Positions 3-59,870 of a stretch of 64,000 nucleotides of DNA are shown here, one piece after another. A program made the translations under genes and the position numbers. The DNA is from Lysobacterales bacterium (GTDB lineage Bacteria; Pseudomonadota; Gammaproteobacteria; Xanthomonadales; SZUA-5): contig JALHMH010000018.1 in the NCBI GenBank assembly GCA_022844165.1, positions 29,071 to 93,070 on the forward strand, given 5' to 3'. How positions within the stretch are numbered: the first letter of the stretch is position 1; the number at the start of each line of letters is the position of its first letter. Under the pieces are notes generated by a model. The model ran no database searches, was not told the origin of the DNA, and saw nothing but the letters and a program-made list of their open reading frames with translations.

Positions 3-1070
3 AATACCGCAGCCTCGGGGCAACTGCTGCGGTTCGATGCAGCCCCGAGCGTCAACCCCGACGATGTGGTGATCGATTATTTGACGCCGCGCAGCACCTT
101 CGGCACAGCGCCAGCGGCCGATCACAGCGGCCACTATCGCAATCCAATTTACTTGAGCGACGGCAGCATCGTGGTCGCGCACACGAGCGAGCAGGGCGGC
201 CTCGCCAACGTCGGCACCAATACAGCACCACAGCCGAACTACCGCTTCCGACTCAAACGGATGGTCAATGGCGTGGGCGGCTTTTTGACGGCGGGCACGC
301 CGTTGACCAACGGCATCAACAAGACCGTGAATTGGTGGAGCCCAGATGTTGCGGTCAGCTACAGTGGCGAACTCTGGGAGTTGAGCCCGGTCGAAGTCCG
401 CGCCAGAACGGTGCCGCCATTGACAAGCGAACCGCCGCTCGCGGCGCCCGAAGCCGCCGCGTTTGCGGCTGCCGGCGTTGCACCGAGCACGTTCAAGGCC
501 TTCTTGCGCGCACAGAATTTGGGATTGATCACGGTGCGCAACAACACCGCACGCGATGATGCCGACCGCCAACAGCCGTTCCGTCTTCGTGTGCCCGGCG
601 GCGTTAGTCATTTGCCCGGTACCGGTGCGATTTACGACATACGCCATTTTCAACTCGTGCAAGGGGATCAGGTGCGGGGCATCGGTGGCGCGGCCAGCCC
701 AGATCCAGGCCGTCGCGTCCTGGCGCGCTTCATGCACGGTCTGCCGGCAACGCTCAATCCCCCGAATCCCACCGGCCCGGCGAGCAGCGTCGGTATTTTT
801 AGCGACGGCTCGTCCGCTTCGTTTGTGCCGACACGTCGGGCGCTCAGTTGGCAAACCACCGATCCGGGCGGAACGCCTGTCGTCCGCGAGCGATTCTGGC
901 TGACGCTGCAACCGGGCGAAATCCGTGCCTGCGATGGTTGCCACGGCGTCAACCGTGCCGGCCAGTCTGGACAATCGGCGGCTACCAATACGCCACAAGC
1001 GTTGATCGATTTGCTGCAGCGCTGGAGTCAGGCGAACGGCGGACTCATGTTCGCCGACAACTTCGAGTAA
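3..1070 (+). CDS. 5'-truncated HzsA-related (hydrazine synthase alpha-like) protein with one CxxCH heme motif and C-terminal MFADNFE tail
   Basis: Frame is open from the window start. VVRERFWLTLQPGEIRACDGCHG resembles the HzsA-related C-terminal region. Ends LMFADNFE*. Confidence 0.65.
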   Translation, partial: NTAASGQLLRFDAAPSVNPDDVVIDYLTPRSTFGTAPAADHSGHYRNPIYLSDGSIVVAHTSEQGGLANVGTNTAPQPNYRFRLKRMVNGVGGFLTAGTPLTNGINKTVNWWSPDVAVSYSGELWELSPVEVRARTVPPLTSEPPLAAPEAAAFAAAGVAPSTFKAFLRAQNLGLITVRNNTARDDADRQQPFRLRVPGGVSHLPGTGAIYDIRHFQLVQGDQVRGIGGAASPDPGRRVLARFMHGLPATLNPPNPTGPASSVGIFSDGSSASFVPTRRALSWQTTDPGGTPVVRERFWLTLQPGEIRACDGCHGVNRAGQSGQSAATNTPQALIDLLQRWSQANGGLMFADNFE

Positions 1071-1164
1071 GTGCCGCGCCTTTGCGCGCCGAATCGGCGC
1101 GCCTGCTCCGCACGAACGGCGCAACGCGTAGTCTTGTCAGCCTCTCGATGACCGGATGTCGCTC

Positions 1165-3861: not shown

Positions 3862-4200
3862 TGATCGGCAGCGCTGGCTGTGTTGGCTTCGATCCGGAAT
3901 CGCGTCCAGCGCAATCATCCGGGCGCGATTGGCTCTGTCACGGAAAGAGAAGTCGAAAATCGGAATGAACAGCAAGTCGTAGACAGGCGGCGTGCGACTG
4001 AAGGATGAGTCAGTTCAAATTGCGCATCCAGCGAGCTGTTTAACTGGATCGAAGAGGCCTATCGCGCTGCATGAGGCCTGGTGGCAACCAACACGCCTGC
4101 AGCCCGAAGTCCCAATTGACGGACACTGAGCGACAACCGCTGCACTGGATCTCAACGCTATCCTGCACATGTGCGGCATTGGCGAAACAGGAGCATTTGG

Positions 4201-5484: not shown

Positions 5485-5506
5485 CGCCGCCACGGAGCGG
5501 CGGCGC
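5484..5506. terminator. GC-rich hairpin between convergent genes
   Basis: GCGCCGCC-ACGGAGC-GGCGGCGC directly after the MFS stop. There is no U-tract. Confidence 0.4.
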
Positions 5507-5519
5507 GTCCGATCACGCG

Positions 5520-7720
5520 TTATTCGAAGCCATTCGCAAACACACCGTCATTGTCGAAGGTATGCGACCAGACGCCACGGCCCAGCGTGCCTGCATAGAG
5601 CGTCTGAGTGGATGGCACGTAGCGCAGGTCGAATACCAATACGTCCGGTAACGCGCTGCCGAGTTGCGACCAGACAGCGCTATCGACGGCCGCTGTGTAA
5701 ACGCCCGATCGTGTGCCCAGTGCGACCTCCCCGCGGCCAGCGAGAAACTCAATCGTGCGGAAGTCGACGGACGAGATCGCGCCTAGATTTCCGGTGACAT
5801 CGGTCCAGGTCACGCCGGCGTCCGTTGAGCGAAACACCTGGTTGTCATCGATCGCGAAGACCAGGTTGCTGGTGGCTGGGTCCATCGCCACGTCAGTGAT
5901 CGTAGCAGCACCAGCAGGCAAGGCCGAAGTGACCACAAAGGTGGCCGTTCCCGGCGCGCGGTAATGCACGGCTGCGCTGCGACCGACGTAGGCAACTTCG
6001 GGTGCGGCCGTCGCACCGTAAGCCATCGCGTTGCGATTAGCGCCAGGGCCGCCGAGCGACGTGAGTGTCGGTGCGCCGCTGTCGGCGTTCGTCGATTCAT
6101 AGATGGTATTGACCCCGCCGACCAACAATCGCGATGGATTTGCGGCGCTCAGTTCGGTGGGCGTAACGAATTGCGGGTCGGCAATGTTCGGCATCCCCAA
6201 ATTCCCGGTCTGCGTGTTCGTCATATCAAACGCGGCACGGCGAAAACCGCCGAGGTTCTGTGCGCTAATGAAGCGGAAACTGCTCGCCGGCGTGCGCGCG
6301 CGATCGTCGATCACAACATCGCCGCCGTCGCCACTGTTAATCCAGCGCCATCGCGGATCGACCGCCGTGACCTGCATATGCGTGCCGTTATCCTGGGTAC
6401 CGATCACCAGGATGTTACTGACGCTGTCGTGATCCAGATCGTGCACCTCCATCACATTGAGATTTCCGTTGACCGATACCCACGCCCGCGTGGAGGCGCC
6501 TGGGTTGCTCAAGCGATAGACGCCGCCGTCGTCGCTTTGCAGAAGATTTCCGGCGGCATCGAACGCCATCGCACGGCTGTCGGCATGGGGCGCCGTGTTG
6601 TTCGCACCGCCGTCGACGACCGAAGTCGCCTGGGCACCCAGCGTCGAGGCTGCGTTAACGCGAAACACACTGCCTGTGAACGGGCTGGCTGTGATGCGGT
6701 CCCCAGCGATGTAAACCACATTCCCATCCAGCGGATCGGCGGCGATCGACGTATTGGTACCGCCCTGGCCTCCGGGGTGGATGTTCGGTTCATCGAGCGC
6801 AACCCAGGTTGCGCCTCGATCCGGCGAGCGCATCAACGCAGTAATTCGCCCGGCCTGGACAACAATGACGAAGACGCTCTGCCCAGGCCCAACTGCGATA
6901 CGAATCCGACTATTCGCCGGCGCCACGTCGGTCAACCCGGCGGTGATGTCAGTCCATGTCGCGCCGAAATTTTCGCTGCGATGCACAGTGCCGTTGCGCA
7001 CTGCGGCGTAGAGCCGGTTGCTATTGGCCGGATCGACGACCAAATCGTGGATGCCGCCGGTGGGCAAGACGCTGCCTGAGACGTTGGTCCAAGTCGCACC
7101 CGTATCCGACGAGCGGAACAAGCCGCCGCCAAACGACGCTGCCAAGATCTCTGCGCCGCGCGCTTGCACGCCAACGAGTTTCTGACCAAGCAGATCCGTA
7201 CTGCCGAGCAGCGTCCAACTCAGACCGCCATTGGTTGTGCGGTACACGCCAATCTCATCGTCGCCGCGCTGCGCGAAATTGCTCCAGCGGCCAAGACCGG
7301 CCACGAGTGTCTGTGAGGTCGCATCGGTCGGGTCGAAACTGATGGCACCGATCGATTGCGACGGCATCCCGTCGGTCAGCGGCGCCCAACTCGGACGCGC
7401 GGCGAGCGCGTCGTTGGTTCGCCAAACGCCACCATTGACGCCGCCGATATAGAGAATGTTCGCATTCGTTGGGTGCGGCGCGAGCGCGTGCACAGCGCCC
7501 GAAACTTCGTTGTCCGGGGGACTCTGACTTGCGCCGAAAATGTTGGCGCTGGACCGCGTTCGATCCAGGTCGCACCGCTGCCGCGATCAGACTGCATCGG
7601 CGGGACGATCGCGGGCCGCTCCTCGGAAGGGTCCACCGGTTCGGCATCGCCGAGTACGGTTGGTCGCGACACACAACCGGTTAAACAGCTCAATGCAAGA
7701 ATCAGGAGGATGCGGTTCAC
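5520..7720 (-). pseudogene. BNR/Asp-box repeat beta-propeller lipoprotein (sortilin/GH74-like), frameshifted at a C5 run (7516-7520)
   Basis: GTG 7720 starts MNRILLILALSCLTGC (lipobox) in one frame. The main body (PDNEVSGAVHALAPHP...; repeated RSxDxGxTW Asp-boxes; ends VFANGFE*) is in another frame. One extra C joins them. Could be a sequencing error. Confidence 0.75.
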
Positions 7721-7796
7721 AGCAGTCGGTCGAGGGCCAAAGACCGCGAGAAGATCGCGCAGATTCGACGTCTTCGCCAGTGCCATCGCGAGAAAA

Positions 7797-8468
7797 TCAG
7801 CCCAGCGACATCGGCTTGGATATCCCGAGCCACATCGCAGCAAAAATTGCGATCCAGATCACCCAGACAATCGGCTTGACCTGCGCGATGATTCTGCGCA
7901 TTGCCGTCTCATCCTCCGCCGTGGCGAGGCCGTTGGCGACCTTGGCCAGCAACGGACCGAAGGGCAATAACTGTCGGCGGATCACGAGGCCACAGACAAT
8001 AATCGCGGCGAATAGCCCGACTTTGGCCTGCAGCCAGAATTGATCAGCCAACGGTGCACCGCGGCGGATGCTCTGAATCAACATCGCCACAAGGCCCAGT
8101 GCGATTGCGATTCGCAGCAGCCAGTCGAAGCGACGCAGGCGCTCGCCCAACGCTGAATGCTCGCGCAGGTGCACGGCCCAGACCATGACCAGCCAGGCAA
8201 GGCAGAACACCAGCACAGCGACAACCCCGGGGCCGTCGATGGATAGAAAGCCCATTACCTGCGCCAGCGCCATTCCGCTGCCCAACATCAGCACCAGACA
8301 CGTCCGCGGAATCATGTCCGCCAACAACATCAGTTTTGCTGCATACATGCGGACCGCGGCGGGGCGTTGGCGGTCGATGACATGATTGCTGACCAGGTAG
8401 ACGACCAGATCTGAGCCCAACCAATAGATGACGCACAACAAGTGAAACAACAGGGCAAGGGTGTACAT
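7797..8468 (-). CDS. Hypothetical integral membrane protein (about 6 TM)
   Basis: 223-aa ORF with multiple hydrophobic helices, co-oriented just upstream of the BNR gene. Confidence 0.8.
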   Translation of the reverse strand: MYTLALLFHLLCVIYWLGSDLVVYLVSNHVIDRQRPAAVRMYAAKLMLLADMIPRTCLVLMLGSGMALAQVMGFLSIDGPGVVAVLVFCLAWLVMVWAVHLREHSALGERLRRFDWLLRIAIALGLVAMLIQSIRRGAPLADQFWLQAKVGLFAAIIVCGLVIRRQLLPFGPLLAKVANGLATAEDETAMRRIIAQVKPIVWVIWIAIFAAMWLGISKPMSLG

Positions 8469-11913: not shown

Positions 11914-12107
11914 GCGCTGCGCTACTCGGCGCCGGGCGAGAAAAGTAACGATTTGCCGGGATCAAGTCGTTCGGCGTTTCGATCTATGCTCCTCACACAC
12001 TGTGCATCCGCACCGAATTTCGGTATCGCGTGGTGCCGGCGAACCGAGCGTCCTGCGTCCGATTTGTTCCGGACGTTCCGCGGTGTTTGAACTTCGAAGG
12101 GGGATTT

Positions 12108-15100
12108 ATGCGATCAGTAACGTTGGCTGCGGCGCTTGCCGCATTGTGTTCGTCCTGGGCAAGCGCGCAAACCGAAAGCGAGCCGTTGTCTTTCCTCACC
12201 GAGAAGCCGTGGTCATTGAGCCAGCACGGGCCAATACTGGGTGCCGAGGCGGCCAATCGGGCGCTGAGCTGCGCATTGGCAAAAAGCCCGATCGCGCGCA
12301 TGGCGCTGCCCAAAGGGGGTCAAATCGCGCTCACCAAACCTGAGCCCGGCGCTGACCTCGCGATCCCGGACAATTACCGCAGCGCCAGCGGCAAGCACAA
12401 GTTGATGGTCAGCGGCGTTGGCTTTGGCGCGCTCAAGTCCATCGGTGCGGACAACATCCAAGACTATGGCAGCTTCCTGGTGGCTGATGTCGATGCGCGC
12501 GCCGTGAGTGCATTGAAAGCGCTGAGCAGCACCGAGCCGACGTATGTCGATTACCAGAATCTGATTCAGATCGGGCAGCGCTTGTTCGATACCACCGACG
12601 CTGCGGTCAAAGCGCGGTCGCGCGACGCCAGCGAGTCCGGGCAACGGATCGTGCAGTTTTCGGGCCCGATCAAGGACGAGTGGTACGCAGCTCTGCAGGC
12701 CACCGGCGCTGCTATTGTCGGCTACCTGCCGAGCAATGCCTATGTCGTGGCAGGCGGCGCGAAGGAACTAGAGCGCGTGCAACGCTTCGCCCGCGAGGCC
12801 AGTTACGTGCAGTGGCAAGGGCCGGTGTTGATCGAAGACAAACTCACAGTTGGAGCGGATCAGCACCTGAAGTCGTTGCGCCCCGGCGAACCTGCGCCAG
12901 GCGGCATCTACACAGTACAGGTGTTGCGCGACACGCCCATGAGTGTACAAACGCGCGCACTCATCACCACCAGCGCTACCGGCCGGATCATCAACGAATA
13001 CGACATTCTCGAATACACCAATATCTTGCTGCCGCTCAGCGTCGCGAGCTTACGTGAGATCGCGGCGCGACCGGATGTCGTAGTGGTCGAGTCTTATGTG
13101 TCCCCTACCAAGCTTGACGAACGCCAGAACATGATCGTCGCCGGCAATATCACTGGTAACGGCCCGACGCCAGGCGACTACTTCAGTTTGCTCTCTACCT
13201 GGGGCTTCAACCAGGCGCAGTTCACCACGTCCAACTTCGGCGTCGATGTCTCGGACAGCGGCATCGACAACGCCACCACCACACCGAACCACTTTGGGCT
13301 GCGACTCGCCGGCGCGATCGGCGGCACCAGCCGCGTTGTCTACAATCGCCTCGAAGGCACGGCGAACGTGGGTTCGACGCTGCAAGGATGCGATGGCCAC
13401 GGCAATCTCAACGCGCACATCATCGGCGGCCACACCGGATCGCGAACCGCGGCACCGCATGCCGACGCACAAGGTTTCCGCTATGGATTGGGCGTCAACC
13501 CGTTCATCAATCGGATCGGCAGCAGCGTGATTTTCGATCCCAGTACCTTCACGAACCCCAATCTGCCGAATCTGCAATCGCGCGCTTACAACGATCAGAT
13601 GCGGCTGAGCAGCAACAGTTGGGGTTCCGCCGCTAACGGCGCCTACACCACAACATCGCAAACCTTCGACGCGCTCACGCGCGACGCCCAACCCACCGGA
13701 AGCACCTTCGCCAACGCCGGAAACCAACAAATGGTGGTGCTGTTTGCGGCCGGCAACAGCGGACCCGGCGTTGATACGATGGGCGCCCCGGGAACGGCCA
13801 AAAACGTGATCACGGTGGGCGCGTCCGAGAACGTCCATCCCTTTGGCGCCGCGGACCAATGCGGCACCACGGACAGCGGCGCCGATAACCTCAACGACAT
13901 TATCGCTTTCAGCTCGCGCGGCCCGACCGACGACGGTCGTGTCAAGCCGGACATCGTCGCGCCCGGTACGCATGTCTCCGGCGGCGTCTTTCAAGCGACG
14001 CACTCCGATGCCGGCAACGGCGCGGCAGCCGCCTGTTTCGACGCGAGCGGGGTTTGTGCCGGCCCTGGCGCCAGCGATTTCTGGCCGCTGGGCCAGCAGT
14101 TCTACACGGCCTCCTCGGGCACCAGCCACTCCACACCCGCCGTCGCTGGCGGCGCGTCGCTGGTGTACCAGCAGTTCCTCAACAACCCGACGTACCTGTC
14201 CGATCGTCTGCCGGCCGGCGCCCAACCGCCGAGCCCGGCAATGGTCAAGGCCTATTTGACCAATACCACGCGCTACATGACCGGGGTGAGCGCGAACGAC
14301 AACTTGTACTCGAATAACCAAGGCATGGGCCTGATGGATCTCGGCCGGGCATTCGACACCACGCCGCGCATCATTCGCGACCAGGTGGCAGCGCAAGCGT
14401 TTGCCAACACGGGCGAATTGCGAGTGTTCACCGGCAGTGTCAGCGACGCATCGCGGCCGTTCCGCGTGTCGTTGGCGTGGACCGACGCACCGGGTGCGAC
14501 CACTGGAAACAGCTTCAGCAACAATTTGGATCTGACGGTTACGATCGCTGGCCAAACCTATCGAGGCAACGTTTTTTCGGGCGCACTGTCGGTGCCTGGC
14601 GGTTCGGCTGATATCGCTAACAACCTCGAAAGCGTCTTCCTGCCGGCCGGCTTTCCGGTTGGTACGCCATTTTTGGTCACCGTCAGGGCCACCAACATCA
14701 CCGCGAATGGCATTCCGAACGACGGCGCCGCCGACCCGACGGACCAGGACTTTGCGCTGGTCGTCTACAACGGCGCGACCGCGTCGTTGCCGGTGATCCA
14801 GGGAACGGCCACGATCGTCGGCGGAACCTGTCCTGCCAACGGCACGGCGCCCGATCCGGGCGAGACCCTTGAAGTCAGCATTGCGCTGCAAAACATTGGT
14901 ACGGCCAACACCGGCAACCTGAACGTGCAACTGCTGAACCAGAGCGGCGTCACGCTGGCCTCGGGCACGCCCGTCAACTACGGCACGCTCGTCGCCGGTG
15001 GTGCTTCTGTTGCTCGTGCGCACGGTCTGCGCGTGGATCCAGCCCTGGTCTGCGGCAACAGCTTCACGCCGATCGTGCGCATGAACGATGGTGGCGCCGT

Positions 15101-16781
15101 CGTGAATCAGGATCAGAGCTTGAACACCCAGATCACAGGCGTAGCCAACATTCCGTTGGCTGAGAACTTCGACGGGGTGGTTGCCCCGGCCTTGCCGGCT
15201 GGCTGGACCGCGTCGCTGCCGCTCGGCAGCGGCCCGACCTGGACGACGACAACTACGCTGCCCAGCGACAGCGGAACTAATAAGATCTTTACGCCAAATC
15301 CCGCCACGCCCTCCGACAGTCGGATCAACTCGCCATCGGTCGCCATTCCGGCCGGGCCGACTGCATCGGTGCTCGTGTTCCGCCACCGCTTCTTGACTGA
15401 GAATCGATTCGATGGTGGCGTGTTAGAGATCTCCATCGGCGGTGGCGCTTTCGCTGACATCATCACGTCGGGCGGTACCTTCGTTGCCGGCGGCTACACC
15501 AATACGCTGAGAACGGACCTCGGAACGACCAATCCGCTCGCAGGGCGTTCGGCCTGGACGGGCACACAGACCGCCTTCGGCACGGTGCAGGTCACGCTGC
15601 CCCTCAGCGCCAACGGCCAGAACATCGTGCTGCGCTGGCGCTTTGGAACGGATAACCTGGTCAATGCGACGGGCTGGTTCGTCGATTCCATTCAGATATC
15701 GTCCGGGCGCACATGCGTCTTGGGATGCCAGGGCACAACGATGTCGATCAATGATGTGAGCGTCAGCGAAGGCAACAGCAGCACTACGTCGATGACCTAC
15801 ACGGTGACGCGCAGCAATCCGCTGCTCACGCAGTCGGTCAGCGCGCAGACGATCGCTGGCGGCACCGCTACAGCGCCAATCGACTTCACAGCCGTGGGTC
15901 CGACGACGCTGACCTTCAGCGGCGCCCAGACCACCCAGAATTTCACAGTGTCCGTGAACGGCGATAACGACGTGGAGACTGACGAAACGGTGTTCGCACA
16001 GCTGAGTGCGATCACCGGCGGCGTGGCGCTGACGGATCCTGATGGCATCGGCACCATCCTGAATGACGACAATGCCATTGCAACGACGACCACCATCACC
16101 AGCGATGCGCCCGATCCTTCCACCGCCGGTCAGCCGTATGCGGTGAATGTGACCGTGTCGAGCGGCAGTGTGTCGCCCACGGGCAGCGTGACGGTGAGCG
16201 ATGGCACCATCAGTTGCGGCCCCGTGGCACTGCTTCCCGGTACCGCGCCCAACAGCACCGCCTCGTGCAACTTGAGTAGCACCACCGTTGGCGCGCTCAC
16301 ACTGACAGCAACCTATGCGCCGTCGGGTTCGTTCAGTGGCAGCACCGATACCGAACCGCATACGGTCAATCCCGCGGCGAGCGGTGGCGATGTCAGCGTG
16401 ACCTTGACCGACGCGCCCGATCCGGTGTCCGCGGGCGGCCAGCTCACCTATGTTGCAACGCTGACCAGTAACGGTCCGGGTAATGCCGATAACGCCAGCA
16501 TCTCGCTGCCGTTGCCGGGCACAACCGTACTGGTGTCGGCCAACGCTGGCGCCGGCGGCAGTTGTAGCGGCAACCCGGTGGTTTGTACCTGGCCAGGCGC
16601 AACCGCACCCAGCACCACGCGCATCGCGACGATTGTCGTCACCGTGCCGGCCTCGGCCAGCGGTACCCTGAGCGCCACCGTCACTGCAGGCGCCAGCAAC
16701 GATGGCAACGTGGGCAATAACACCGCTGGCACCACCACCTTGATCTCGCGCCGACGCATTATTCCGCCGCCGGGACCGTAA
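12108..16781 (+). CDS. Secreted S8 serine peptidase (Kp43-like) with jelly-roll, Calx-beta, Ig-like and DUF11 domains
   Basis: Signal peptide; catalytic D (DVSDSG), H (GHGNLNA), oxyanion N (AGNSG), S (SGTSHSTP); GPTDDGRVKPD; SINDVSVSEGN (Calx-beta); DVSVTLTDAPDPV (DUF11). Confidence 0.92.
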   Translation: MRSVTLAAALAALCSSWASAQTESEPLSFLTEKPWSLSQHGPILGAEAANRALSCALAKSPIARMALPKGGQIALTKPEPGADLAIPDNYRSASGKHKLMVSGVGFGALKSIGADNIQDYGSFLVADVDARAVSALKALSSTEPTYVDYQNLIQIGQRLFDTTDAAVKARSRDASESGQRIVQFSGPIKDEWYAALQATGAAIVGYLPSNAYVVAGGAKELERVQRFAREASYVQWQGPVLIEDKLTVGADQHLKSLRPGEPAPGGIYTVQVLRDTPMSVQTRALITTSATGRIINEYDILEYTNILLPLSVASLREIAARPDVVVVESYVSPTKLDERQNMIVAGNITGNGPTPGDYFSLLSTWGFNQAQFTTSNFGVDVSDSGIDNATTTPNHFGLRLAGAIGGTSRVVYNRLEGTANVGSTLQGCDGHGNLNAHIIGGHTGSRTAAPHADAQGFRYGLGVNPFINRIGSSVIFDPSTFTNPNLPNLQSRAYNDQMRLSSNSWGSAANGAYTTTSQTFDALTRDAQPTGSTFANAGNQQMVVLFAAGNSGPGVDTMGAPGTAKNVITVGASENVHPFGAADQCGTTDSGADNLNDIIAFSSRGPTDDGRVKPDIVAPGTHVSGGVFQATHSDAGNGAAAACFDASGVCAGPGASDFWPLGQQFYTASSGTSHSTPAVAGGASLVYQQFLNNPTYLSDRLPAGAQPPSPAMVKAYLTNTTRYMTGVSANDNLYSNNQGMGLMDLGRAFDTTPRIIRDQVAAQAFANTGELRVFTGSVSDASRPFRVSLAWTDAPGATTGNSFSNNLDLTVTIAGQTYRGNVFSGALSVPGGSADIANNLESVFLPAGFPVGTPFLVTVRATNITANGIPNDGAADPTDQDFALVVYNGATASLPVIQGTATIVGGTCPANGTAPDPGETLEVSIALQNIGTANTGNLNVQLLNQSGVTLASGTPVNYGTLVAGGASVARAHGLRVDPALVCGNSFTPIVRMNDGGAVVNQDQSLNTQITGVANIPLAENFDGVVAPALPAGWTASLPLGSGPTWTTTTTLPSDSGTNKIFTPNPATPSDSRINSPSVAIPAGPTASVLVFRHRFLTENRFDGGVLEISIGGGAFADIITSGGTFVAGGYTNTLRTDLGTTNPLAGRSAWTGTQTAFGTVQVTLPLSANGQNIVLRWRFGTDNLVNATGWFVDSIQISSGRTCVLGCQGTTMSINDVSVSEGNSSTTSMTYTVTRSNPLLTQSVSAQTIAGGTATAPIDFTAVGPTTLTFSGAQTTQNFTVSVNGDNDVETDETVFAQLSAITGGVALTDPDGIGTILNDDNAIATTTTITSDAPDPSTAGQPYAVNVTVSSGSVSPTGSVTVSDGTISCGPVALLPGTAPNSTASCNLSSTTVGALTLTATYAPSGSFSGSTDTEPHTVNPAASGGDVSVTLTDAPDPVSAGGQLTYVATLTSNGPGNADNASISLPLPGTTVLVSANAGAGGSCSGNPVVCTWPGATAPSTTRIATIVVTVPASASGTLSATVTAGASNDGNVGNNTAGTTTLISRRRIIPPPGP

Positions 16782-45834: not shown

Positions 45835-45874
45835 GTGAGTCGATTTGCCTTCACATTCTCAGGGGAACGTGTCA

Positions 45875-48800
45875 ATGAACGTCTTTTCGCTTCGGGCTGC
45901 GGTAATAGCCGGGCTTATGTTCGGCACTGCCGCATACGCTCAGACCAAGGATCAGCTCACGCAGCAACTGATCGATTTGCAAACGCAGATCGAGACACTG
46001 AAGGCGCAAGGCAACCTGAGCGCTATCGCGCCGGTGCAGGTGCAGTTCGATCAAATTTCTGCGCAACTGGGCGGCGATACGCCATGCGGCGTCGGTCCGG
46101 TGCAAGCGGGTTCGTCGGCTTCGCGCGCGCCAGCGCCGTCTCCAGTTGGCTGTACGGCGACAACGACCAACTTTGCGCAAACCACTGCCACCGCCATTCC
46201 GACCGGACCTGCGGTTGTTACATCGACGCTGACTGTCGCGGGTGCGGGCTCCTACTTGTGGGACGTGGACATCACCACCAATATCGTGCACTCGTTTGCG
46301 GCGGACCTGGACATCACGATCCAATCGCCAGCCGGCACGGTGGTCACTCTGACCACGGACAACGGTGCTGGCAACGACAATGTGTTTAACGGCACGGTGT
46401 GGGATGACGATGCGAATCCCGGCGGCACCGTACCGTACACCACGAACAACGGACTCGTGACCGATCACGCGTACGCCAATCTGACGCTGGCCTCGCCACT
46501 GGTGCCGGAGGAGTCGTTAGCTGCGTTCGTTGGCGAGAATCCGAACGGCACGTGGACGATCACCATCAGCGACGATCTGGCCGGCGATGGTGGCAGTCTG
46601 GATAGTTGGGCGCTGGCGCTGACCACGTTCCCGCAGGCTGTGCAGACGAGCCCGCTGCAGGCATTCAATCAAACCACGCCGGTAGCCATTCCCACGGGGC
46701 CGGCGGTCGTCACGTCTACGCTGGCAGTGAGTGGCGTGACCAATCGCTTGTGTAAGGCAGTGATTCGCTCCTCGATCACGCACAGTTTCTCGGCGGATAT
46801 GGACATTACGCTGACCTCGCCAGCCGGGACAGTGGTGACGCTGACGACAGACAACGGCGCTGGCAACGACAACACCTACAACGGAACCACGTGGGATGAC
46901 GATGCCAACGCTGCAGGGCAAGTGCCGTATGTGACTAACAATGGACTGGCGACCGATCACGCTTATGTCAATTTGACCACCGCAACACCGTTGGTGGTTG
47001 AGGAGTCGATGGGCGCGTTTATGGGTGAAGATGCCAATGGCACCTGGACGTTGACCATCAGCGACGATCTGGCGGGTGACGGCGGCAGTATCGATGCCTG
47101 GGGACTGGACATCCAAGGATGTTTCTGCGGCGGCGACCTGACGCTGGCCGTCACCGACACACCAGATCCAGTCACGCCGGGTACCGCGATCACCTATGTC
47201 GCCACGGCAACCAACAACGGCCCGGGTAGCGTTAGCGAAGTCAACATCAGTTTTCCGATGGCCGCGGGCACAACCTTTACCTCTGCAGCAGCAAGCGCTG
47301 GCGGCAGTTGCACCTCACCAGCGGTCGGCGCTACGGGCACGGTCAGCTGCACCTGGCCCGGCGTTACAGCGGTGGGGGCGGGCGCTGCGCGCTCCGTGAC
47401 GATCGTCGCAGGCGTGCCGCCGGCGGCGACGCCGGGAACCAACCTGACGGTTAACGCGACGACAGCATCGACGCCGCCGGATCTCAATACGGGAAACAAT
47501 GGCGCGTCTGCCACGACCACGGTGGGTCCGGCATCTGCCGATCTTCTTGCGGGTTTGACGGCCGCGCCGACGCCATCGGTCGTCGCCGGCACGAACCTGG
47601 TGTACTCCGCAACGGTGACCAACCAGGGACCGTCCGATGCGCAGAACGCCCAGGTGAGTTTGCCGCTGCCGGCAGGGACCAGTCTGGTCTCGGCGATGGG
47701 CACAGGCGCAACCTGCTCGGGCACCACAACAGTCGTTTGCGTGTTCAGCGGTGCAACCGCGCCGACGATTGCGCGCACTGCGATGATCACAGTCCTGGTG
47801 GCGGCCTCCGTGCCGAATGGCTCCACGTTATCGGCGATCAACTCAGTGTCTGCGACGACAGCCGATCCGGTCACCGGTAACAATGACGCGTCGGTCTCGA
47901 CCAGCGTTGTGGCGAATGCGGACTTGTCGGCGGGTCTGACGGCAGCACCCACGCCAAGTGTGATTGCCGGCACCAATCTGGTGTACACGGCCACGGTCGC
48001 CAACCTCGGCCCGTCGGATGCCCAGAATGCCCAAGTGAGCCTGGGATTGCCCGCCGGCACGAGCCTCGTTTCGGCCTCCGGCACGGGTGCGACCTGTTCG
48101 GGCACCACAACGGTGGTCTGCGTGTTCAACGGCGCCACGGCGCCAACCATCACCCGGACTGCAACCATCACCGCCCTGGTTGCCCCGTCGGTGGCCAATG
48201 GCGCAACGCTGTCGGCCAGCAACACCGTGTCGTCGGCAACCACAGATCCAGCGGGCGGCAACAACACCGCATCGGTCTCGACGACCGTGAATACCAGTGC
48301 CGATCTGGTGGCCGGCCTGACGGCAGCGCCTTCGCCGTCTGTCAGCGCTGGCGCCAATCTGGTCTACACCGCAACCGTCGCCAAACTCGGCCCGTCCGAC
48401 GCGCAGAATGTGCAGGTGAGCCTGCCCTTGCCGGCCGGAACCAGCCTGGTGTCCGCCTCGGGTACGGGTGCGACCTGTTCGGGCACGACCACCGTGGTGT
48501 GCGTGTTCAATGGCGCCACCGCGCCCTCGGTCACGCGCACGGCAACCATCACCGTATTGGTCGGTGCGGCGGTGGCCAACGGCACCACGCTCACGGCAAC
48601 GAACACAGTGTCCTCGGCAACCTCCGATCCTGCGACCGGCAACAACACCGCATCGGTATCGACCACGGTTGTCACGAGCGCGAATCTGGCGCTGACGCTC
48701 ACCGCCTCGTCGCTCGATACACCGCTCAACACGCCGGTGACCTTCACCGCCGTCAGCACCAACCTCGGCCCGAGCGACGCGCAAAATCTGTCGATTTCGA

Positions 48801-49159
48801 TTGTGCTGAGCCCGGACTTCCGCTTCGGCACAGTGACGCCGGGTGCGGGTGGCACGTGTACTTCGCCGCAAATCGGCTTAACTGGCACGGTGACCTGCAC
48901 CTACGCCCGTGCGACGGCAGCGAATACATCGCGTACGATGGCCGTGACATCAGCGGCGGTGGTCGACGGCGTCACAACGATCAGCGCCAGCACAACATCG
49001 GCAACAAGCGATCCGGTCACGACGAATAACACGGCGAGTCTGTCGATGCGCGCGGGGCTGCCGTACGAGGCGATTCCGGTGAATAACCCGGTGGCGCTCG
49101 CGCTGCTGGCGCTGTTGCTGGGTGGACTGGGCCTGACCCTGGTGCGTCGCTACGGCTAA
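45875..49159 (+). CDS. Surface protein: two proprotein-convertase P-domains, five DUF11 domains, IPTL-CTERM-like anchor
   Basis: Signal peptide; HSF.ADLDIT..SPAGT.V.L and NGTWT.TISD twice; N.GPSDAQN repeats; ends IPVNNP-TM-RR. Confidence 0.88.
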   Translation: MNVFSLRAAVIAGLMFGTAAYAQTKDQLTQQLIDLQTQIETLKAQGNLSAIAPVQVQFDQISAQLGGDTPCGVGPVQAGSSASRAPAPSPVGCTATTTNFAQTTATAIPTGPAVVTSTLTVAGAGSYLWDVDITTNIVHSFAADLDITIQSPAGTVVTLTTDNGAGNDNVFNGTVWDDDANPGGTVPYTTNNGLVTDHAYANLTLASPLVPEESLAAFVGENPNGTWTITISDDLAGDGGSLDSWALALTTFPQAVQTSPLQAFNQTTPVAIPTGPAVVTSTLAVSGVTNRLCKAVIRSSITHSFSADMDITLTSPAGTVVTLTTDNGAGNDNTYNGTTWDDDANAAGQVPYVTNNGLATDHAYVNLTTATPLVVEESMGAFMGEDANGTWTLTISDDLAGDGGSIDAWGLDIQGCFCGGDLTLAVTDTPDPVTPGTAITYVATATNNGPGSVSEVNISFPMAAGTTFTSAAASAGGSCTSPAVGATGTVSCTWPGVTAVGAGAARSVTIVAGVPPAATPGTNLTVNATTASTPPDLNTGNNGASATTTVGPASADLLAGLTAAPTPSVVAGTNLVYSATVTNQGPSDAQNAQVSLPLPAGTSLVSAMGTGATCSGTTTVVCVFSGATAPTIARTAMITVLVAASVPNGSTLSAINSVSATTADPVTGNNDASVSTSVVANADLSAGLTAAPTPSVIAGTNLVYTATVANLGPSDAQNAQVSLGLPAGTSLVSASGTGATCSGTTTVVCVFNGATAPTITRTATITALVAPSVANGATLSASNTVSSATTDPAGGNNTASVSTTVNTSADLVAGLTAAPSPSVSAGANLVYTATVAKLGPSDAQNVQVSLPLPAGTSLVSASGTGATCSGTTTVVCVFNGATAPSVTRTATITVLVGAAVANGTTLTATNTVSSATSDPATGNNTASVSTTVVTSANLALTLTASSLDTPLNTPVTFTAVSTNLGPSDAQNLSISIVLSPDFRFGTVTPGAGGTCTSPQIGLTGTVTCTYARATAANTSRTMAVTSAAVVDGVTTISASTTSATSDPVTTNNTASLSMRAGLPYEAIPVNNPVALALLALLLGGLGLTLVRRYG
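47540..48682 (+). repeat. Three intragenic 381-bp (127-aa) DUF11 repeats
   Basis: Units start at 47540, 47921 and 48302. Confidence 0.9.
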
Positions 49160-49215: not shown

Positions 49216-49370
49216 CGCTTGTCTCGCCATCAAATTCGGCTGAGCCCCAGATTGTGCTTGCGCCCGCAGAACGCCGCATAGAACCTCGTATTCACACATA
49301 CTGTTCAGAACTGCTTCACTGAGCTAGCATCTTCCATCCACTTTGTCCTCACATGCCCAGGGGATTCACG

Positions 49371-51896
49371 ATGAAAGCAAAGTTGTTCCTGGCCACGGCG
49401 GTTGCCGCTGGCTTGATGTTCGGATCCGGCGCGTCTGCGCAAACAAAGGATCAACTGACCCAGCAACTGATCGATTTGCAAACGCAGATCGAGACACTGA
49501 AGGCGCAAGGCAACCTGAGCGCTATCGCGCCGGTGCAGGCGCAGTTCGATCAAATTTCTGCGCAACTGGGCGGCGATACGCCATGCGGCGTCGGTCCGGT
49601 GCAAGCGGGTTCGTCGGCTTCGCGCGCGCCAGCGCCGTCTCCGGTTGGCTGTACCGCGACAACGACCAACTTTGCGCAAACCACTGCCACCGCCATTCCG
49701 ACCGGACCTGCGGTTGTTACATCGACGCTGACTGTCGCGGGTGCGGGCTCCTACTTGTGGGACGTGGACATCACCACCAATATCGTGCACTCGTTTGCGG
49801 CGGACCTGGACATCACGATCCAATCGCCAGCCGGCACGGTGGTCACTCTGACCACGGACAACGGTGCTGGCAACGACAATGTGTTTAACGGCACGGTGTG
49901 GGATGACGATGCGAATCCCGGCGGCACCGTACCGTACACCACGAACAACGGACTCGTGACCGATCACGCGTACGCCAATCTGACGCTGGCCTCGCCACTG
50001 GTGCCGGAGGAGTCGTTAGCTGCGTTCGTTGGCGAGAATCCGAACGGCACGTGGACGATCACCATCAGCGACGATCTGGCCGGCGATGGTGGCAGTCTGG
50101 ATAGTTGGGCGCTGGCGCTGACCACGTTCCCGCAAGCTGTGCAAACCTCCGGCACGCAGGTGTTCACTCAGCCGACGGCCGTGGCAATTCCCACTGGCCC
50201 TGCGGTGGTGACGTCAACTCTGGCGGTCAGTGGTGTGACCAATCGCTTGTGTAAGGCAGTGATTCGCTCCTCGATCACGCACAGTTTCTCGGCGGATATG
50301 GACATCACGCTGACCTCGCCTGCGGGTACGGTGGTCACACTCACGACAGACAACGGCGCAGGCAACGACAACACCTACAACGGCACCACCTGGGACGACG
50401 ACGCGAATCCTGCGGGTCAGGTTCCTTACACCACCAACAACGGCATGGCGACCGATCACGCCTATGCGAATCTGATCACAGCAACTCCGTTGGTTGTCGA
50501 AGAGTCGATGGGCGCGTTCATGGGCGAAGACGCCAACGGCACCTGGACACTGACGATCAGCGATGATCTCGCGGGCGATGGCGGCAACTTGACATCGTGG
50601 GCACTGGATCTCACCGGTTGCTTCTGCGGCGGCGACCTGACCCTGGCCGTCACCGACACACCAGATCCGGTCACGCCGGGCACCGCGATCACCTACGTCG
50701 CGACTGCAACCAACAACGGCCCGGGTGATGTCTCCGACGTCAACATCAGCTTCCCGATGGCCGCTGGAACGACCTTCACGTCGGCGGTTGCCAGTGCGGG
50801 TGGCAGCTGCACCACGCCGGCAGCCGGCACGGCAGGCACCATCAGCTGCACCTGGACGGGCACCACCACGCCAGGCGGCGGCAACGCTCGCTCGGTCACA
50901 ATCGTGGCAGGTGTTCCTGCAGCAACCGCGCCGGGCACTGTTCTTGCCGTCACGGCGACAACGGCATCGACGCCACCGGATCTGAACACGGGCAACAACA
51001 GCGCCGCGATCACGACCACCGTCGGTGCAGCATCGGCCAATCTGGTCGCCGGTCTTTCCGCAGCACCCACGCCTTCGGTCACCGCTGGAACGAACCTGGT
51101 TTACACGGCAACCGTTGCCAACCTGGGTCCATCCGATGCGCAAAACGCGCAAGTGAGCCTGCCATTGCCAACGGGCACGAGCCTGGTTTCCGCCTCGGGC
51201 ACTGGTGCGACGTGTTCGGGCACGACCACGGTGGTCTGCGTGTTCAATGGCGCGACGGCGCCGACGGTCACACGTACGGCGACCATCACTGTGCTGGTGG
51301 CTGCCTCGGTGGCGAACGGCACCACACTGACGGCGACGAACACGGTGTCGTCGGCGACTGCCGATCCTGTAGCGGCCAACAACACCGCGTCGGTTTCCAC
51401 CACCGTGAACGCCAACGCCAATCTGGCGCTGACGTTGACCGCCTCATCGCTGGATACCCCGCTTAATGTGCCGGTGACCTTCACGGCTGTGAGCACCAAC
51501 CTTGGTCCGAGCGATGCGCAGAATCTGTCGATCTCGATCGTGCTGAGCCCGGACTTCCGCTTCGGCACAGTAATGCCCGGTGCAGGCGGCACGTGTACTT
51601 CTCCGCAAATCGGCTTGACAGGTACCGTCACCTGCACTTACGCCGGGGCGACCGCACCGAATGCGTCGCGCACGATGATTGTGACCGCAGCAGCGGTGGT
51701 CGACGGCATCACGACCATTAACGCCAGCACGACATCGGCAACGAGCGATCCGGTGACGGCGAACAATACGGCCAGCCTGTCGATTCGCGCGGGTTTCCCG
51801 TACGAAGCAATTCCGGTCAACAACCCACTGGCGCTTGCGCTGCTGGCGCTGCTGCTGGGTGGTCTGGGTCTGACGTTGGTTCGTCGTAACGGCTAA
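49371..51896 (+). CDS. Paralogous surface protein: two P-domains, three DUF11 domains, IPTL-CTERM-like anchor
   Basis: Same architecture as 45875-49159 with two fewer DUF11 units; ends IPVNNP-TM-RRNG. Confidence 0.88.
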   Translation: MKAKLFLATAVAAGLMFGSGASAQTKDQLTQQLIDLQTQIETLKAQGNLSAIAPVQAQFDQISAQLGGDTPCGVGPVQAGSSASRAPAPSPVGCTATTTNFAQTTATAIPTGPAVVTSTLTVAGAGSYLWDVDITTNIVHSFAADLDITIQSPAGTVVTLTTDNGAGNDNVFNGTVWDDDANPGGTVPYTTNNGLVTDHAYANLTLASPLVPEESLAAFVGENPNGTWTITISDDLAGDGGSLDSWALALTTFPQAVQTSGTQVFTQPTAVAIPTGPAVVTSTLAVSGVTNRLCKAVIRSSITHSFSADMDITLTSPAGTVVTLTTDNGAGNDNTYNGTTWDDDANPAGQVPYTTNNGMATDHAYANLITATPLVVEESMGAFMGEDANGTWTLTISDDLAGDGGNLTSWALDLTGCFCGGDLTLAVTDTPDPVTPGTAITYVATATNNGPGDVSDVNISFPMAAGTTFTSAVASAGGSCTTPAAGTAGTISCTWTGTTTPGGGNARSVTIVAGVPAATAPGTVLAVTATTASTPPDLNTGNNSAAITTTVGAASANLVAGLSAAPTPSVTAGTNLVYTATVANLGPSDAQNAQVSLPLPTGTSLVSASGTGATCSGTTTVVCVFNGATAPTVTRTATITVLVAASVANGTTLTATNTVSSATADPVAANNTASVSTTVNANANLALTLTASSLDTPLNVPVTFTAVSTNLGPSDAQNLSISIVLSPDFRFGTVMPGAGGTCTSPQIGLTGTVTCTYAGATAPNASRTMIVTAAAVVDGITTINASTTSATSDPVTANNTASLSIRAGFPYEAIPVNNPLALALLALLLGGLGLTLVRRNG

Positions 51897-51920: not shown

Positions 51921-51953
51921 AAGGGGCGGCCTCGAGGCTGCCCCTTTTCATTT
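51921..51953 (+). terminator. Intrinsic terminator
   Basis: AAGGGGCGGCC-TCGA-GGCTGCCCCTT-TTCATTT. Confidence 0.8.
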
Positions 51954-54926: not shown

Positions 54927-54992
54927 CCGGGCTGACCAAGCTTTGATCCGATCCCATCCCGGAACCAAATACCTCGTCGTGCTTCAGTCCGG

Positions 54993-56363: not shown

Positions 56364-56605
56364 ACGAGTCGCCAAAGGTCCGAACACCAGCAGAGACTAG
56401 CTCAAGCACTCGGAGTCTGCAGGCGACGTCAGCTCACGGCTCGTTGTGGGTCGCGCTACAGCGCGACGCTCTTGTCTGTTGCCCACGGCAAGCCGTCAAC
56501 TCATCTTCCGCAGCGAACGTTCTCGGCAACGGAGCCTCCGGCCAGTTGCCCCTGCGTGTCGTCGCACCAGCCGCAGCGTCGGGCGCTTGTTGTAATCTTG
56601 GACAT

Positions 56606-58552: not shown

Positions 58553-58619
58553 AGATTTGCACATTTCATCAGCCGATTCCGGACTATCATCCGCATCGAT
58601 TTCCACTCGGGAGCGGGGA

Positions 58620-59870
58620 ATGTTCAGTTCGATCAGTCGCGGCGCGCGCGGGTTGCTCGCCAGCGTCGCTTTGTTGTCTTCTGCTGCGGCCGTCGCAGCG
58701 GGGGGGCCGGATGTGACGGTGTTTGCGTTGAGCGACACCCAGAATTACGGCGTTTCTGGCGGTATTCGTGGCTATTCGATCGGCACAACCTCTTGCAATA
58801 TTGGCACCGCACCACTCAATTGGTGCGATGAGGCTGGCGGATGCTCGAATGGTGTGATCAATCTTACCTCCAGGCAACACCCGGTCATCGCGCAGAATAT
58901 TTATCGTTTCAAAGACGGGCGCTTCGAACAAATCGGCGCCAGTTGGTTGAAGCACGGTTTCTTGTCGTTGAACAATACCTCCGCCGGTTGTGGCAATGGT
59001 TCCTGTCAAATCCCGCCGTTAGGTGGCAGCCAACTGGGCGTCGGTTGCACCGACCCATACGGCGCCGGGCTCAATGGCTCGCGCCCCCTCGGACGGCGCT
59101 CGGAAGTCAACGGCGCAACCGGTGATTTTCCTTTCCCAATCGGTGGTGGCGGCGCCACTTCTGCTGTTTGGAACCAACGAGTTGCGGTAGCTGAGTCGGA
59201 TCTGGCCCCGGCGAACAATCCCGGCGCTCGCTACTTCGCTGAAGGCCACTACATCGCAGGTGATGACGGCCTGGCGGGCAATGGTCTCAACAACGCGTCC
59301 TATCGTGAAGTTACCGTCAACGCAACCTCCTTCAATCTGAGCTTTAGTGGTGCCACGGTCCGCGAGCGCGCTGCGATCCAGGCATGGCCGGTGTTGGATC
59401 CCTCAGTCCAACTTTTCAACGTCGACATTCCTGGCAGCGAGCCGCTCGAACGCTTCCATCTGGCCCGCAAGGTCACGCAGGTCTCGCCCGGCCTTTGGCG
59501 CTACGAATTCGCAATCCACAATATGAATTCCGATCGTGGCGCAGACCGCTTCAGCATCGACTTTGGTGTCCCGACGACGTTTTCAGGCGTTGGATTCAAA
59601 GACGTAAACGCGCACTCCAATGAGCCCTACGACACCACCGATTGGGGCAATAGCGTGACTGCCACGGCAGTTCAGTGGCAGGCCGCCGCGTTTACGCCAG
59701 CGCAGGACGCCAACGCCCTGCGCTGGGGCACCATGTACAACTTCTGGTTCGAAGCGACCTCACCGCCGGTCGCGACCACAGGCGTACTACGCATCTTCAA
59801 ACCCGGCACACCCACCGAGGTCACCATCGCATTGCCCGCAGAGACGCTGTTTGCCAATGGGTTTGAATGA
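58620..59870 (+). CDS. Uncharacterised secreted Cys-rich protein with LFANGFE tail
   Basis: Signal peptide; GPDV, GTTSCNIG, QHPVIAQN, SWLKHGF, LGVGCTDPY, NALRWGTMYNFWF. Confidence 0.85.
   Translation: MFSSISRGARGLLASVALLSSAAAVAAGGPDVTVFALSDTQNYGVSGGIRGYSIGTTSCNIGTAPLNWCDEAGGCSNGVINLTSRQHPVIAQNIYRFKDGRFEQIGASWLKHGFLSLNNTSAGCGNGSCQIPPLGGSQLGVGCTDPYGAGLNGSRPLGRRSEVNGATGDFPFPIGGGGATSAVWNQRVAVAESDLAPANNPGARYFAEGHYIAGDDGLAGNGLNNASYREVTVNATSFNLSFSGATVRERAAIQAWPVLDPSVQLFNVDIPGSEPLERFHLARKVTQVSPGLWRYEFAIHNMNSDRGADRFSIDFGVPTTFSGVGFKDVNAHSNEPYDTTDWGNSVTATAVQWQAAAFTPAQDANALRWGTMYNFWFEATSPPVATTGVLRIFKPGTPTEVTIALPAETLFANGFE

Follow-up and report, generated by a model that had tools for sequence, protein, structure and literature searches.

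A nine-residue C-terminal peptide, typically ending in Gly-Phe-Glu and here called the GFE tail, is an independent module on at least 41 unrelated protein families of a Lysobacterales bacterium, where it lies outside any shared domain and is limited to exported proteins (nearly all of them, by a crude signal-peptide detector). There is an even chance, in our judgment, that it is a genuine lineage-specific, ultrashort recognition tag on Sec-exported cargo that is bound in trans after Sec export. Three tail genes lie in the window, the whole 64,000-nucleotide stretch analysed here (positions 29,071 to 93,070 of contig JALHMH010000018.1, assembly GCA_022844165.1).

All three endings described in a first-pass annotation of the window are read from its DNA at exactly the positions given there: MFADNFE-stop at 1047-1070 (plus strand), VFANGFE-stop at 5520-5543 (minus strand) and LFANGFE-stop at 59847-59870 (plus strand). 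The first closes an HzsA-like/PD40 exported protein of 712 amino acids (translation; Pfam HZS_alpha, E 6e-9), whose C-terminal 355 codons occupy 3..1070 of the plus strand; the gene itself begins farther upstream, outside the window, at G000:C18:28002 (G000 being the source genome), and its product has a signal peptide by the crude detector. Translation and homologues mark its ending as a family-specific variant of LMFADG[FLM]E. The second closes a BNR/sortilin-type propeller ORF (5520..7493, minus strand; translation, Pfam and homologues), which at 657 amino acids from a GTG at 7493 is N-terminally shorter than its homologues of 750-770 amino acids with the signal in frame. A 5' segment of this gene is translated in another frame (7526..7720, minus strand) and provides a GTG start and the lipoprotein signal VNRILLILALSCLTGC (7673-7720), which is followed by 'DAEPVDP', the conserved N-terminal region of the BNR family in a comparison of homologue N-termini. 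Because VNRILLILALSCLTGC and the 5520-7493 ORF are read in different frames, the BNR gene is frameshifted at about 7515-7528 in this assembly. A contig of run X1 carries the same sequence, though X1 may be the source sample.

The third ending belongs to a Cys-rich exported protein of 416 amino acids (58620..59870, plus strand), with a signal peptide at about 58620-58700 by translation and the crude detector. It has 1946 homologues and no Pfam or NCBIfam family; its AF2 model (pLDDT 88.7) consists of beta-sandwiches, for which a Foldseek search of the PDB returns only weak beta-sandwich matches (TM ~0.2). The statement that both proteins with visible N-termini carry signal peptides therefore stands for the Cys-rich protein, and for the BNR lipoprotein only across the frameshift. 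The bodies of the three proteins (HZS_alpha/PD40, Sortilin/BNR and a protein of no family) are unrelated, as had been claimed.

In six-frame stop-to-stop segments of the 4.68 Mb genome (n=44,320; 6.15 million residues), the regex [ILMV]F.[DNS][GNS]F[ED] matches 77 times, and 50 of the 77 matches lie directly at a stop codon, against 0.19 expected if they were placed as other matches are and 0.014 expected from composition. Segments ending in GFE-stop number 70, with GFK (1), GFD (4), GFS (9), GFQ (10), GFR (12) and GFA (23) as controls. The pattern seen on three proteins is real, and chance is excluded as its source. A consensus tail, [D/E/N]-x-[LVMI]-[FL]-x-[N/D/S]-G-F-E, terminates 56-76 ORFs of the genome. 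Among the 56 strict tails, position -9 holds D in 29, E in 7 and N in 6; position -7 is L in 30 and V in 16; position -6 is F in 44 and L in 12; position -4 is N in 36, D in 14 and S in 6; position -3 is G in 52; and positions -2 and -1 are F and E throughout.

Several departures from this core form occur. About 10 tails in the genome have one to three additional residues past the motif, and a sister form of about 20 residues reads …GFE[ST]GD.S.W…, or, with its preceding positions, …F.DGFE[ST]GD.S.W…. The terminal residue in relatives is sometimes not E (…GFQ, …GFDS, …GFEP). The source genome also contains motif copies away from the C-terminus, two or three just after signal peptides and about seven in inter-domain linkers or loops, so a free C-terminus does not seem to be strictly required. 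Differing codons had been noted for the three window genes, and synonymous codons are indeed found at all tail positions across the genome. With codon variation at every position and stops of all three kinds, selection acts on the peptide rather than on a repeat in the DNA, an origin that the codon variation rules out; no conserved DNA was found 3' of the stop codons of the 56 tail genes.

Orthologue sequences indicate that the tail is under purifying selection and that the short tail is exchangeable with the sister form of about 20 residues. All three window families retain the tail in orthologues. Among the 119 homologues listed for each family, short, long and regex-unclassified tails number 88, 13 and 18 in the HzsA-like family, 107, 8 and 4 in the BNR family, and 41, 66 and 12 in the Cys-rich family. 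No other anchor type was found at the tail position among these best 119 listed homologues per family, which reach down to about 55% identity.

Tail proteins are strongly enriched for export signals, the enrichment that the first-pass annotation had proposed to look for. Of the 70 tail ORFs with at least 300 amino acids, 65 have a signal-peptide-like start, against 981 of 2516 controls (odds ratio 20 and p 9e-21 in a Fisher test), by a detector crude enough to score 39% of control ORFs positive; signal peptides can be discerned by eye in three of the five tail ORFs that it missed. Whole tail proteins (n=56) form 41 clusters, and the 120 amino acids preceding the tail in these 56 proteins form 46 clusters, 39 of them singletons. 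The possibility that the tail is the terminus of an annotated domain was also checked: pre-tail regions are unrelated, and no curated Pfam or NCBIfam model detects the tail, with a search of four tail fragments against NCBIfam at E up to 10 returning only a spurious GCX_COOH match (E 0.034). Pfam matches are found in 32 of 60 strict tail proteins, every one of extracellular type, and 28 of 60 have no match. The matched types comprise Kelch, FG-GAP, BNR and DUF5122 propellers, Ig-like domains, beta-helix, S8 and M12B peptidases, Endonuclease_1, esterase and CotH. The presence of the tail on at least 41 families, its placement at the stop and the excess of signal peptides bear out the earlier view of a self-contained peptide that holds a fixed position on exported proteins otherwise unrelated to each other. 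No k-mer upstream of 60 tail genes survived multiple testing as a shared promoter.

AlphaFold2 models indicate that the tail is free, carried on a flexible linker and unpacked against its own protein. In the Cys-rich protein, the body has a pLDDT of about 95 and the final five residues (412-416) fall below 50; in a long-form homologue, the final 21 residues have a pLDDT of about 46. Disorder at terminal peptides is common in AF2 models and hence weak evidence. The undocked tails would neither favour nor disfavour docking in trans, as in donor-strand complementation.

Across the genomes sampled, the tail is restricted to one order. Of 399 genomes from the host's order, 207 contain DNA-pattern matches, up to about 76 per genome, and in seven families of the order 157 of 158 genomes are positive, mostly with a few to tens of matches; a reversed-pattern control gives 0-2 matches in the order's genomes. 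In a set of 298 genomes from the class's other orders, 24 show one or two tail matches and 19 show matches to the control pattern, so that outside the order the sampled genomes are at noise level. The first-pass annotation placed similar tails in Dokdonella- and Ahniella-like genomes, and the names on homologues agree, showing the tail to be frequent in genomes of Ahniella, Dokdonella, Tahibacter and Aquimonas type. Of five tail-free relatives, four lacked any match to the BNR family and the fifth gave one weak match; with cargo families missing from tail-free relatives, co-distribution cannot separate a tag from lifestyle or gene set.

The GFE tail shares several features with established C-terminal signals. 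Like LPXTG/sortase, PEP-CTERM/exosortase, GlyGly-CTERM/rhombosortase and MYXO-CTERM/myxosortase signals, it lies at the extreme C-terminus and is lineage-restricted; like these tripartite signals, it is present in dozens of copies per genome on unrelated signal-peptide proteins, and its cargo likewise consists of propellers, Ig-like domains and peptidases. IPTL-CTERM is also counted among the tripartite C-terminal sorting domains. The tail has the recurring C-terminal signature motif of such domains, on 56-76 ORFs. In place of an Arg-rich end, however, it is acidic, with D at -9, N/D at -4 and E at -1. As outlined in 10.1101/2023.06.07.544157, this class of sorting domain consists of a signature motif, then a transmembrane helix, then an Arg-rich cluster; set against that outline, the GFE tail corresponds to the first part alone, at nine residues in total. 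The earlier judgment that the tail is not PEP-, IPTL- or GlyGly-CTERM-like is correct: the tail contains no transmembrane helix or basic cluster, and none follows past the stop. A hydrophobic stretch is encoded beyond the stop, in any frame, in 1 of 56 tail genes versus 7.7% of 796 controls, and no hidden read-through anchor was found. The tails likewise have no LPXTG pattern. No co-occurring endopeptidase was found among C25, C13 and sortase. Other proteins of the source genome do carry classic tripartite signals, about 12-15 in all, two of them within the window.

Signals without a membrane helix offer further points of comparison. In type IX secretion (T9SS), the CTD is a folded domain of about 70-100 amino acids. 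The GFE tail resembles it as a C-terminal, non-membrane signal on Sec-exported cargo in a genome that encodes PorU-like C25, but differs as a nine-residue unfolded peptide that the distribution of C25 does not track; Pfam and NCBIfam find no folded C-terminal domain, and the pre-tail regions are unrelated. Like the BAM beta-signal, the tail is short and C-terminal, with alternating hydrophobics and a penultimate Phe. As the annotation had also recognized, it is nevertheless no beta-signal: all 56 strict tails end in Glu, and the cargo consists of soluble propellers, enzymes and Ig-like domains, not beta-barrels. A further likeness in form is to the 'ultrashort' putative sorting motifs of NCBIfam (YLP box, NF050076/NF053834), which are also very short, C-terminal and without a transmembrane helix, but which, as described, differ in sequence. 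PTS1/Pex5 and EEVD/Hop, in which a TPR receptor reads a short linear motif at the C-terminus, are eukaryotic and cytosolic; by analogy only, they too use a few terminal residues as an address independent of cargo fold. A strict carboxylate clamp is unlikely for the GFE tail, given its tolerance of one to three extra residues and its internal copies. In a full-text literature search for tail peptide strings, the papers listed were all unrelated, and the literature on C-terminal sorting signals yielded only the known tripartite systems.

If the tail is a recognition tag, a shared envelope component would bind the free peptide in trans after Sec export. The peptide's pair of phenylalanines and its N/D-G turn point to a hydrophobic groove or to strand addition as the mode of binding, and the putative component could retain, dock or pass on its cargo at the outer membrane or on the surface of the cell. 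The type II secretion system (T2SS) may carry tail-bearing cargo across; GspL is present in all five small tail-bearing genomes checked and in the source genome, and its presence in every tail-bearing genome checked neither excludes nor implicates T2SS as a partner. A bolder and more doubtful proposal is that the tail marks an undescribed post-Sec sorting route of diderms, in which an anchor-less peptide of nine residues (about 20 in the sister form) would suffice for about 50-75 proteins per cell. Such a route could involve a surface-retention, secretion or covalent-attachment step run by a reader co-evolving with the tag, which would account for the lineage variants …GFE, …GFQ, …GFDS and …GFEP.

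None of the four candidates or neighbours tested by distribution fits as the reader. The PorU-like C25 peptidase does not follow the tail across genomes. The C13 legumain-type peptidase, which is a membrane protein of polytopic topology, turns up in 14 of 28 genomes with the tail and in 9 of 21 without it. The single sortase (G000:C4:178156-178512) adjoins its own LPNTAG+TM+basic substrate. The PF07638 ECF sigma factor, as a marker, occurs in 399 of 399 genomes and so does not discriminate tail-positive from tail-free ones. These distributions bear on the improbable case that a sortase-like transpeptidase cuts within the tail, for instance at [N/D/S]↓G, and attaches the C-terminus thus exposed to an acceptor in the envelope, for example LPS, with GFE, or GFE[ST]GD..W… in the long form, as the leaving group. 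The motif does have a suitable shape, hydrophobic-F-x-[N/D/S]-G with a short leaving group behind it and with G at -3 almost invariant (52/56), and LPXT↓G and asparaginyl peptide ligase sites (Asx-Gly-hydrophobic) resemble it. A candidate for the enzyme is either of the two PorU-like C25 peptidases of the source genome, whose Peptidase_C25 ORFs have 1672 and 1351 amino acids. C25 is present in 23/24, 14/15 and 7/8 genomes of families f1, f9 and f3, and in family f12 it occurs in 11 of 64 genomes, 10 of which are among the 11 tail-positive ones. None of the 65 f2 genomes yielded C25, however, not even G134 and G380 (100% complete) with their 21 and 26 tail matches; C25 was found in 0/4, 0/2 and 21/44 genomes of f5, f6 and f10, and in the tail-free genus g14 it is present in 13 of 38. 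The distribution of C13, the pairing of the sole sortase with its own substrate, S instead of N/D at -4 in 6 of 56 tails, and motif copies after signal peptides, which would be senseless as leaving-group signals, also argue against cleavage.

A tail that acts in cis and needs no reader is another unlikely account: it could be a C-terminal cap against periplasmic or extracellular exoproteases or against edge-strand aggregation, or a remnant of jelly-roll first strands. The likeness to such strands noticed in the first-pass annotation is real, since a domain of the S8 protease in the window begins with IPLAENFDG…PAGWT, a start that the long tail form …F.DGFE[ST]GD.S.W… resembles; the protease region after this start has a match to a domain present in sorted M36 peptidases (NF038111, E 2e-23), and internal motif copies sit at domain borders. 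Against this, nine positions are kept over at least 41 families and in orthologues of 55-70% identity, beyond the needs of a cap, both AF2 models lack docking in cis, and the sharp restriction to one order favours a co-evolving partner.

Tail genes are also significantly linked to modules of ECF sigma factors and Ser/Thr kinases, a new observation. One kinase family has 38 members in the source genome, of which 16 are no more than four genes away from a tail gene (4.8 expected, p 5e-6), and the same is true of 8 of the 20 members of the paired ECF sigma family (p 0.002). Pfam identifies Sigma70_ECF, Pkinase and TPR in the linked modules, and a transmembrane segment separates the kinase from the TPR part. 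TPR domains bind C-terminal peptides in other systems. In a reading that we consider very improbable, TPR-like sensor domains of transmembrane Ser/Thr kinases would sense the tail in the periplasm and feed exoprotein load back on expression. The linkage recurs in another family, where a hand count places 9 of 26 tail sites in G380, 5 of 21 in G134 (about 15% expected) and 1 of 6 in G004 within 10 kb of a kinase match, and kinase matches are numerous in tail-rich f2 genomes (28 in G134, 37 in G380) and few in tail-free ones (four each in G013 and G001). Co-regulation of adjacent exoprotein genes, however, accounts for the linkage without any reading of the tail, and an identical tail on about 60 cargos gives no specificity to 38 kinases. 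G280 (92% complete) has 10 tail matches and no kinase match, whereas tail-free G037 has 11 kinase matches; PF07638-type sigma factors, moreover, are ubiquitous in the order's genomes. A complex predicted from one kinase sensor (P0244, residues 418-876) and the adjoining protein's C-terminal domain plus tail (P0245, residues 590-767) scored 0.02, which counts neither way. The linkage itself suggests that the exoproteome is switched on gene by gene.

Should the GFE tail be an address label, it would be the shortest known for bacterial exoproteins and would do without the membrane anchor on which every catalogued C-terminal sorting signal relies. It would then reveal at a glance the exoproteome of many little-studied soil and water bacteria of Lysobacterales type, indicate missing envelope machinery and offer a nine-residue handle for surface display. 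Cultured carriers, by the names on homologues, include Ahniella affigens, Tahibacter caeni and Pseudomarimonas arenosa, so the function of the tail is accessible to direct testing.

All three endings reported by the first-pass annotation lie exactly where it had placed them: MFADNFE and a stop at 1047-1070 (plus strand), at the end of a 712-aa protein that matches HZS_alpha and whose C-terminal part lies in the window, VFANGFE at 5520-5543 (minus strand) on a BNR/sortilin propeller, and LFANGFE at 59847-59870 (plus strand) on a 416-aa Cys-rich protein. Pfam and NCBIfam searches bear out that the carriers are unrelated, the Cys-rich protein matching no family in either. In the source genome (4.68 Mb, 59 contigs, GC 60.5%), every stop-to-stop segment of 60 aa or more, in all six frames, was scanned with the pattern [ILMV]F.[DNS][GNS]F[ED]. 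Of 77 matches, 50 fall exactly on the stop and about 10 more 1-3 residues before it; 0.19 would be expected at the stop if placement followed non-terminal matches, and 0.014 from composition. GFE is terminal in 70 segments, against 1 for GFK, 4 for GFD, 9 for GFS, 10 for GFQ, 12 for GFR, and 23 for GFA.

A looser pattern, with L also allowed at position -6 (counted back from the last residue) and up to 3 extra residues, finds 83 segments, 76 of them within a crude gene set. The strict form ends 56 genes, with D29/E7/N6 at -9, L30/V16/M6/I4 at -7, F44/L12 at -6, A33 at -5, N36/D14/S6 at -4, G52 at -3, F56 at -2, and E56 at -1. The differing codons noted in the window extend genome-wide, with several synonymous codons at every tail position. 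TGA, TAG, and TAA are all used as the following stop, and comparison of the DNA 3' of the tails found nothing conserved; selection therefore acts on the tail peptide.

The proposed enrichment on exported proteins is strong. A signal-peptide-like start occurs in 65 of 70 tail ORFs (at least 300 aa), compared with 981 of 2516 control ORFs by the same crude detector (odds ratio 20, p 9e-21). Of the five ORFs that the detector missed, three show an obvious signal peptide on visual inspection and another is the BNR gene of the window. The signal peptide previously described for that protein exists as a lipoprotein signal, VNRILLILALSCLTGC, which lies with the family's conserved 'DAEPVDP' region at 7526-7720 (minus strand) but in another frame than the propeller ORF; a frameshift must therefore lie in the gene near 7515-7528 (minus strand), at a run of C between the lipoprotein-signal segment and the propeller ORF. 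BNR homologues are 750-770 aa long with the signal in frame. A contig from one sequencing run, which may be the source sample itself, is identical over 6968-7900; either the gene is a pseudogene, or the frameshift is an error that the source data share. Pfam matches 32 of 60 strict tail proteins and leaves 28 without a match. All 32 are of extracellular type, including Kelch, FG-GAP, BNR, and DUF5122 propellers, Ig-like domains, beta-helices, S8 and M12B peptidases, Endonuclease_1, an esterase, CotH+LTD, and CHRD+RTX.

The 120 residues preceding the tail in the 56 proteins form 46 phmmer clusters (39 singletons), and the whole proteins form 41, so the tail is not the terminus of a common or annotated domain, a concern raised when it was first described. 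Orthologues of the three window families retain it: among the best 119 homologues per family, short, long, and unclassified tails number 41, 66, and 12 for the Cys-rich protein, 88, 13, and 18 for the HzsA-like protein, and 107, 8, and 4 for the BNR protein. The long form, …LF.DGFE[ST]GD.S.W[ST]xxxP, mostly runs 12 residues past the E; no C-terminus in the source genome carries it. Many unclassified tails are variants such as …GFRNGFE and …IFANGFQ, and homologues also show lineage variants ending …GFQ(Q), …GFDS(P), or …GFEP/L. Non-terminal copies in the source genome lie directly after signal peptides and in linkers, in ORFs ending at C41:24767 (minus), C7:45785 (minus), and C17:81213 (plus). 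By eye, one linker copy separates AA10-like and FN3-like domains, and two other copies directly follow signal-peptide cleavage sites.

A 21-base degenerate DNA pattern for F-x-[N/D]-G-F-E-stop has 43 forward and 0 reversed matches in the source genome; across the order, 207 of 399 genomes match it. Of the 158 genomes that make up families f1, f3, f4, f5, f6, f9, and f10, 157 are positive, mostly with few to tens of matches and a maximum of about 76. The pattern is nearly missing from family f2 (3 of 65), the exceptions including two complete genomes, G134 (21 matches) and G380 (26); f7, f8, and f12 have few matches. In other orders of the class, 24 of 298 genomes have 1-2 matches and the reversed control is positive in 19, so that matches there are at about control level. 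Tail genes are dispersed around chromosomes and do not form islands. A weakness of reading the tail as a tag is that tail-free relatives lack the cargo families too (the BNR family was not found in 4 of 5 such genomes, with one weak match in the other), and shared distribution thus cannot tell the tag apart from its gene set.

The anatomy and distribution of the tail suggest a short linear recognition tag on Sec-exported proteins, a reading that we hold to be about evenly poised. Tagged cargo would leave the cytoplasm via Sec, and the tail would then be recognised in trans. GspL turned up in each of five small genomes with the tail, so the type II secretion system could be the carrier. The tail might instead be a transpeptidase-type processing signal, which we consider improbable. 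The source genome encodes two PorU-like C25 peptidases, and 10 of 11 C25 carriers in f12 are tail-positive; as a reader, C25 was rejected, being found in 0 of 65 f2 genomes (G134 and G380 included) and in none of f5 and f6, and present in 13 of 38 tail-free genomes of one genus (g14). A C13 legumain-type membrane peptidase was likewise discarded (found in 14 of 28 genomes with the tail and 9 of 21 without it; 23 of 49 panel genomes overall, independent of the tail), as was sortase, a single copy with its own adjoining LPNTAG substrate. A tail acting in cis as a cap, or persisting as a domain remnant, is given equally little weight: in AlphaFold2 models neither short nor long forms dock on their own protein, with pLDDT below 50 for the last five residues of the Cys-rich protein and about 46 for the last 21 of a long-tail homologue.

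That the tail is a signalling epitope for kinases seems less probable still, although kinases are its clearest neighbours. When neighbours were clustered, with linkage taken as within four genes, one family of transmembrane Ser/Thr kinases, whose C-terminal parts are TPR-like, had 16 of its 38 members linked to tail genes (4.8 expected, p 5e-6), and the paired PF07638-type ECF sigma family had 8 of 20 (p 0.002). The linkage recurs in f2, where hand counts place 9 of 26 tail sites in G380 and 5 of 21 in G134 within 10 kb of a kinase match (about 15% expected). These genomes have 37 and 28 kinase matches, respectively, against 4 in each of two tail-free relatives (G013, G001). However, another genome (G280) has 10 tail matches and 0 kinase matches, tail-free G037 has 11 kinase matches, and the sigma family is found everywhere in the order. 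We read the linkage as co-regulation of a tagged exoproteome and not as proof that kinases read the tag. The recurrent module, comprising the sigma factor, the kinase, and a large exported protein, lies at C55:15800-22100, C8:26900-35000, and 14 more loci. A family that by eye resembles IS200/RAYT-type transposases, with 15 loci (e.g. C1:256080, C3:14384, and C54:22213), is also enriched near tail genes (7 of 15 members, p 0.001).

As part of a preprint by Haft describes it (10.1101/2023.06.07.544157), the known tripartite class has a motif, then a transmembrane helix, then an Arg cluster. The GFE tail differs from that description in having neither helix nor Arg cluster, as the first-pass annotation held, and none was found encoded beyond its stop. 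Pfam and NCBIfam gave no match for the tail, a full-text literature search with motif strings found nothing relevant, and literature on sorting signals returned only known systems. The source genome also carries about 12-15 classic tripartite signals. Two paralogous DUF11/P-domain proteins in the window (45845-49159 and 49353-51896, both plus strand) end …AIPVNNP[LV]ALALLALLLGGLGLTLVRR[YN]G; a TM-anchored C-terminal system thus operates beside the GFE tail in this genome.

Several further loci were observed. A third ending, …[LV]ISRRRIIP(PP)G(P)-stop, occurs on a 1583-aa S8 protease ending in DUF11 (window 12030-16781, plus strand) and another large protein (C45:22875-26819, minus strand) and may be a further C-terminal motif. 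A sortase gene and its adjoining 315-aa protein, whose C-terminus consists of LPNTAG followed by a TM helix and basic residues (C4:177267-178512), form a one-substrate pair in a Gram-negative genome. At C17:65075-66625 (502-2052 of locus L072), a single fusion protein combines a polytopic membrane region at the N-terminus with the C13 (legumain/GPI8-type) domain. The Cys-rich protein (58620-59870, plus strand) belongs to a large uncatalogued family of 1946 homologues at E<=1e-5, including MAG proteins labelled Thermoanaerobaculia, with numerous invariant Cys, Trp, and His residues; its confident AlphaFold2 model (90-sequence alignment; pLDDT 88.7 overall, about 95 in the body) found no convincing fold match in the PDB. 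At C26:50732-65067, a 2141-aa ORF ending …LFRNGFEEPR-stop runs 13 bases into a 2640-aa ORF, at that ORF's start; the second ORF has a tripartite signal at its end, and the two may together be a single giant gene that is interrupted by a frameshift and holds the GFE motif internally.
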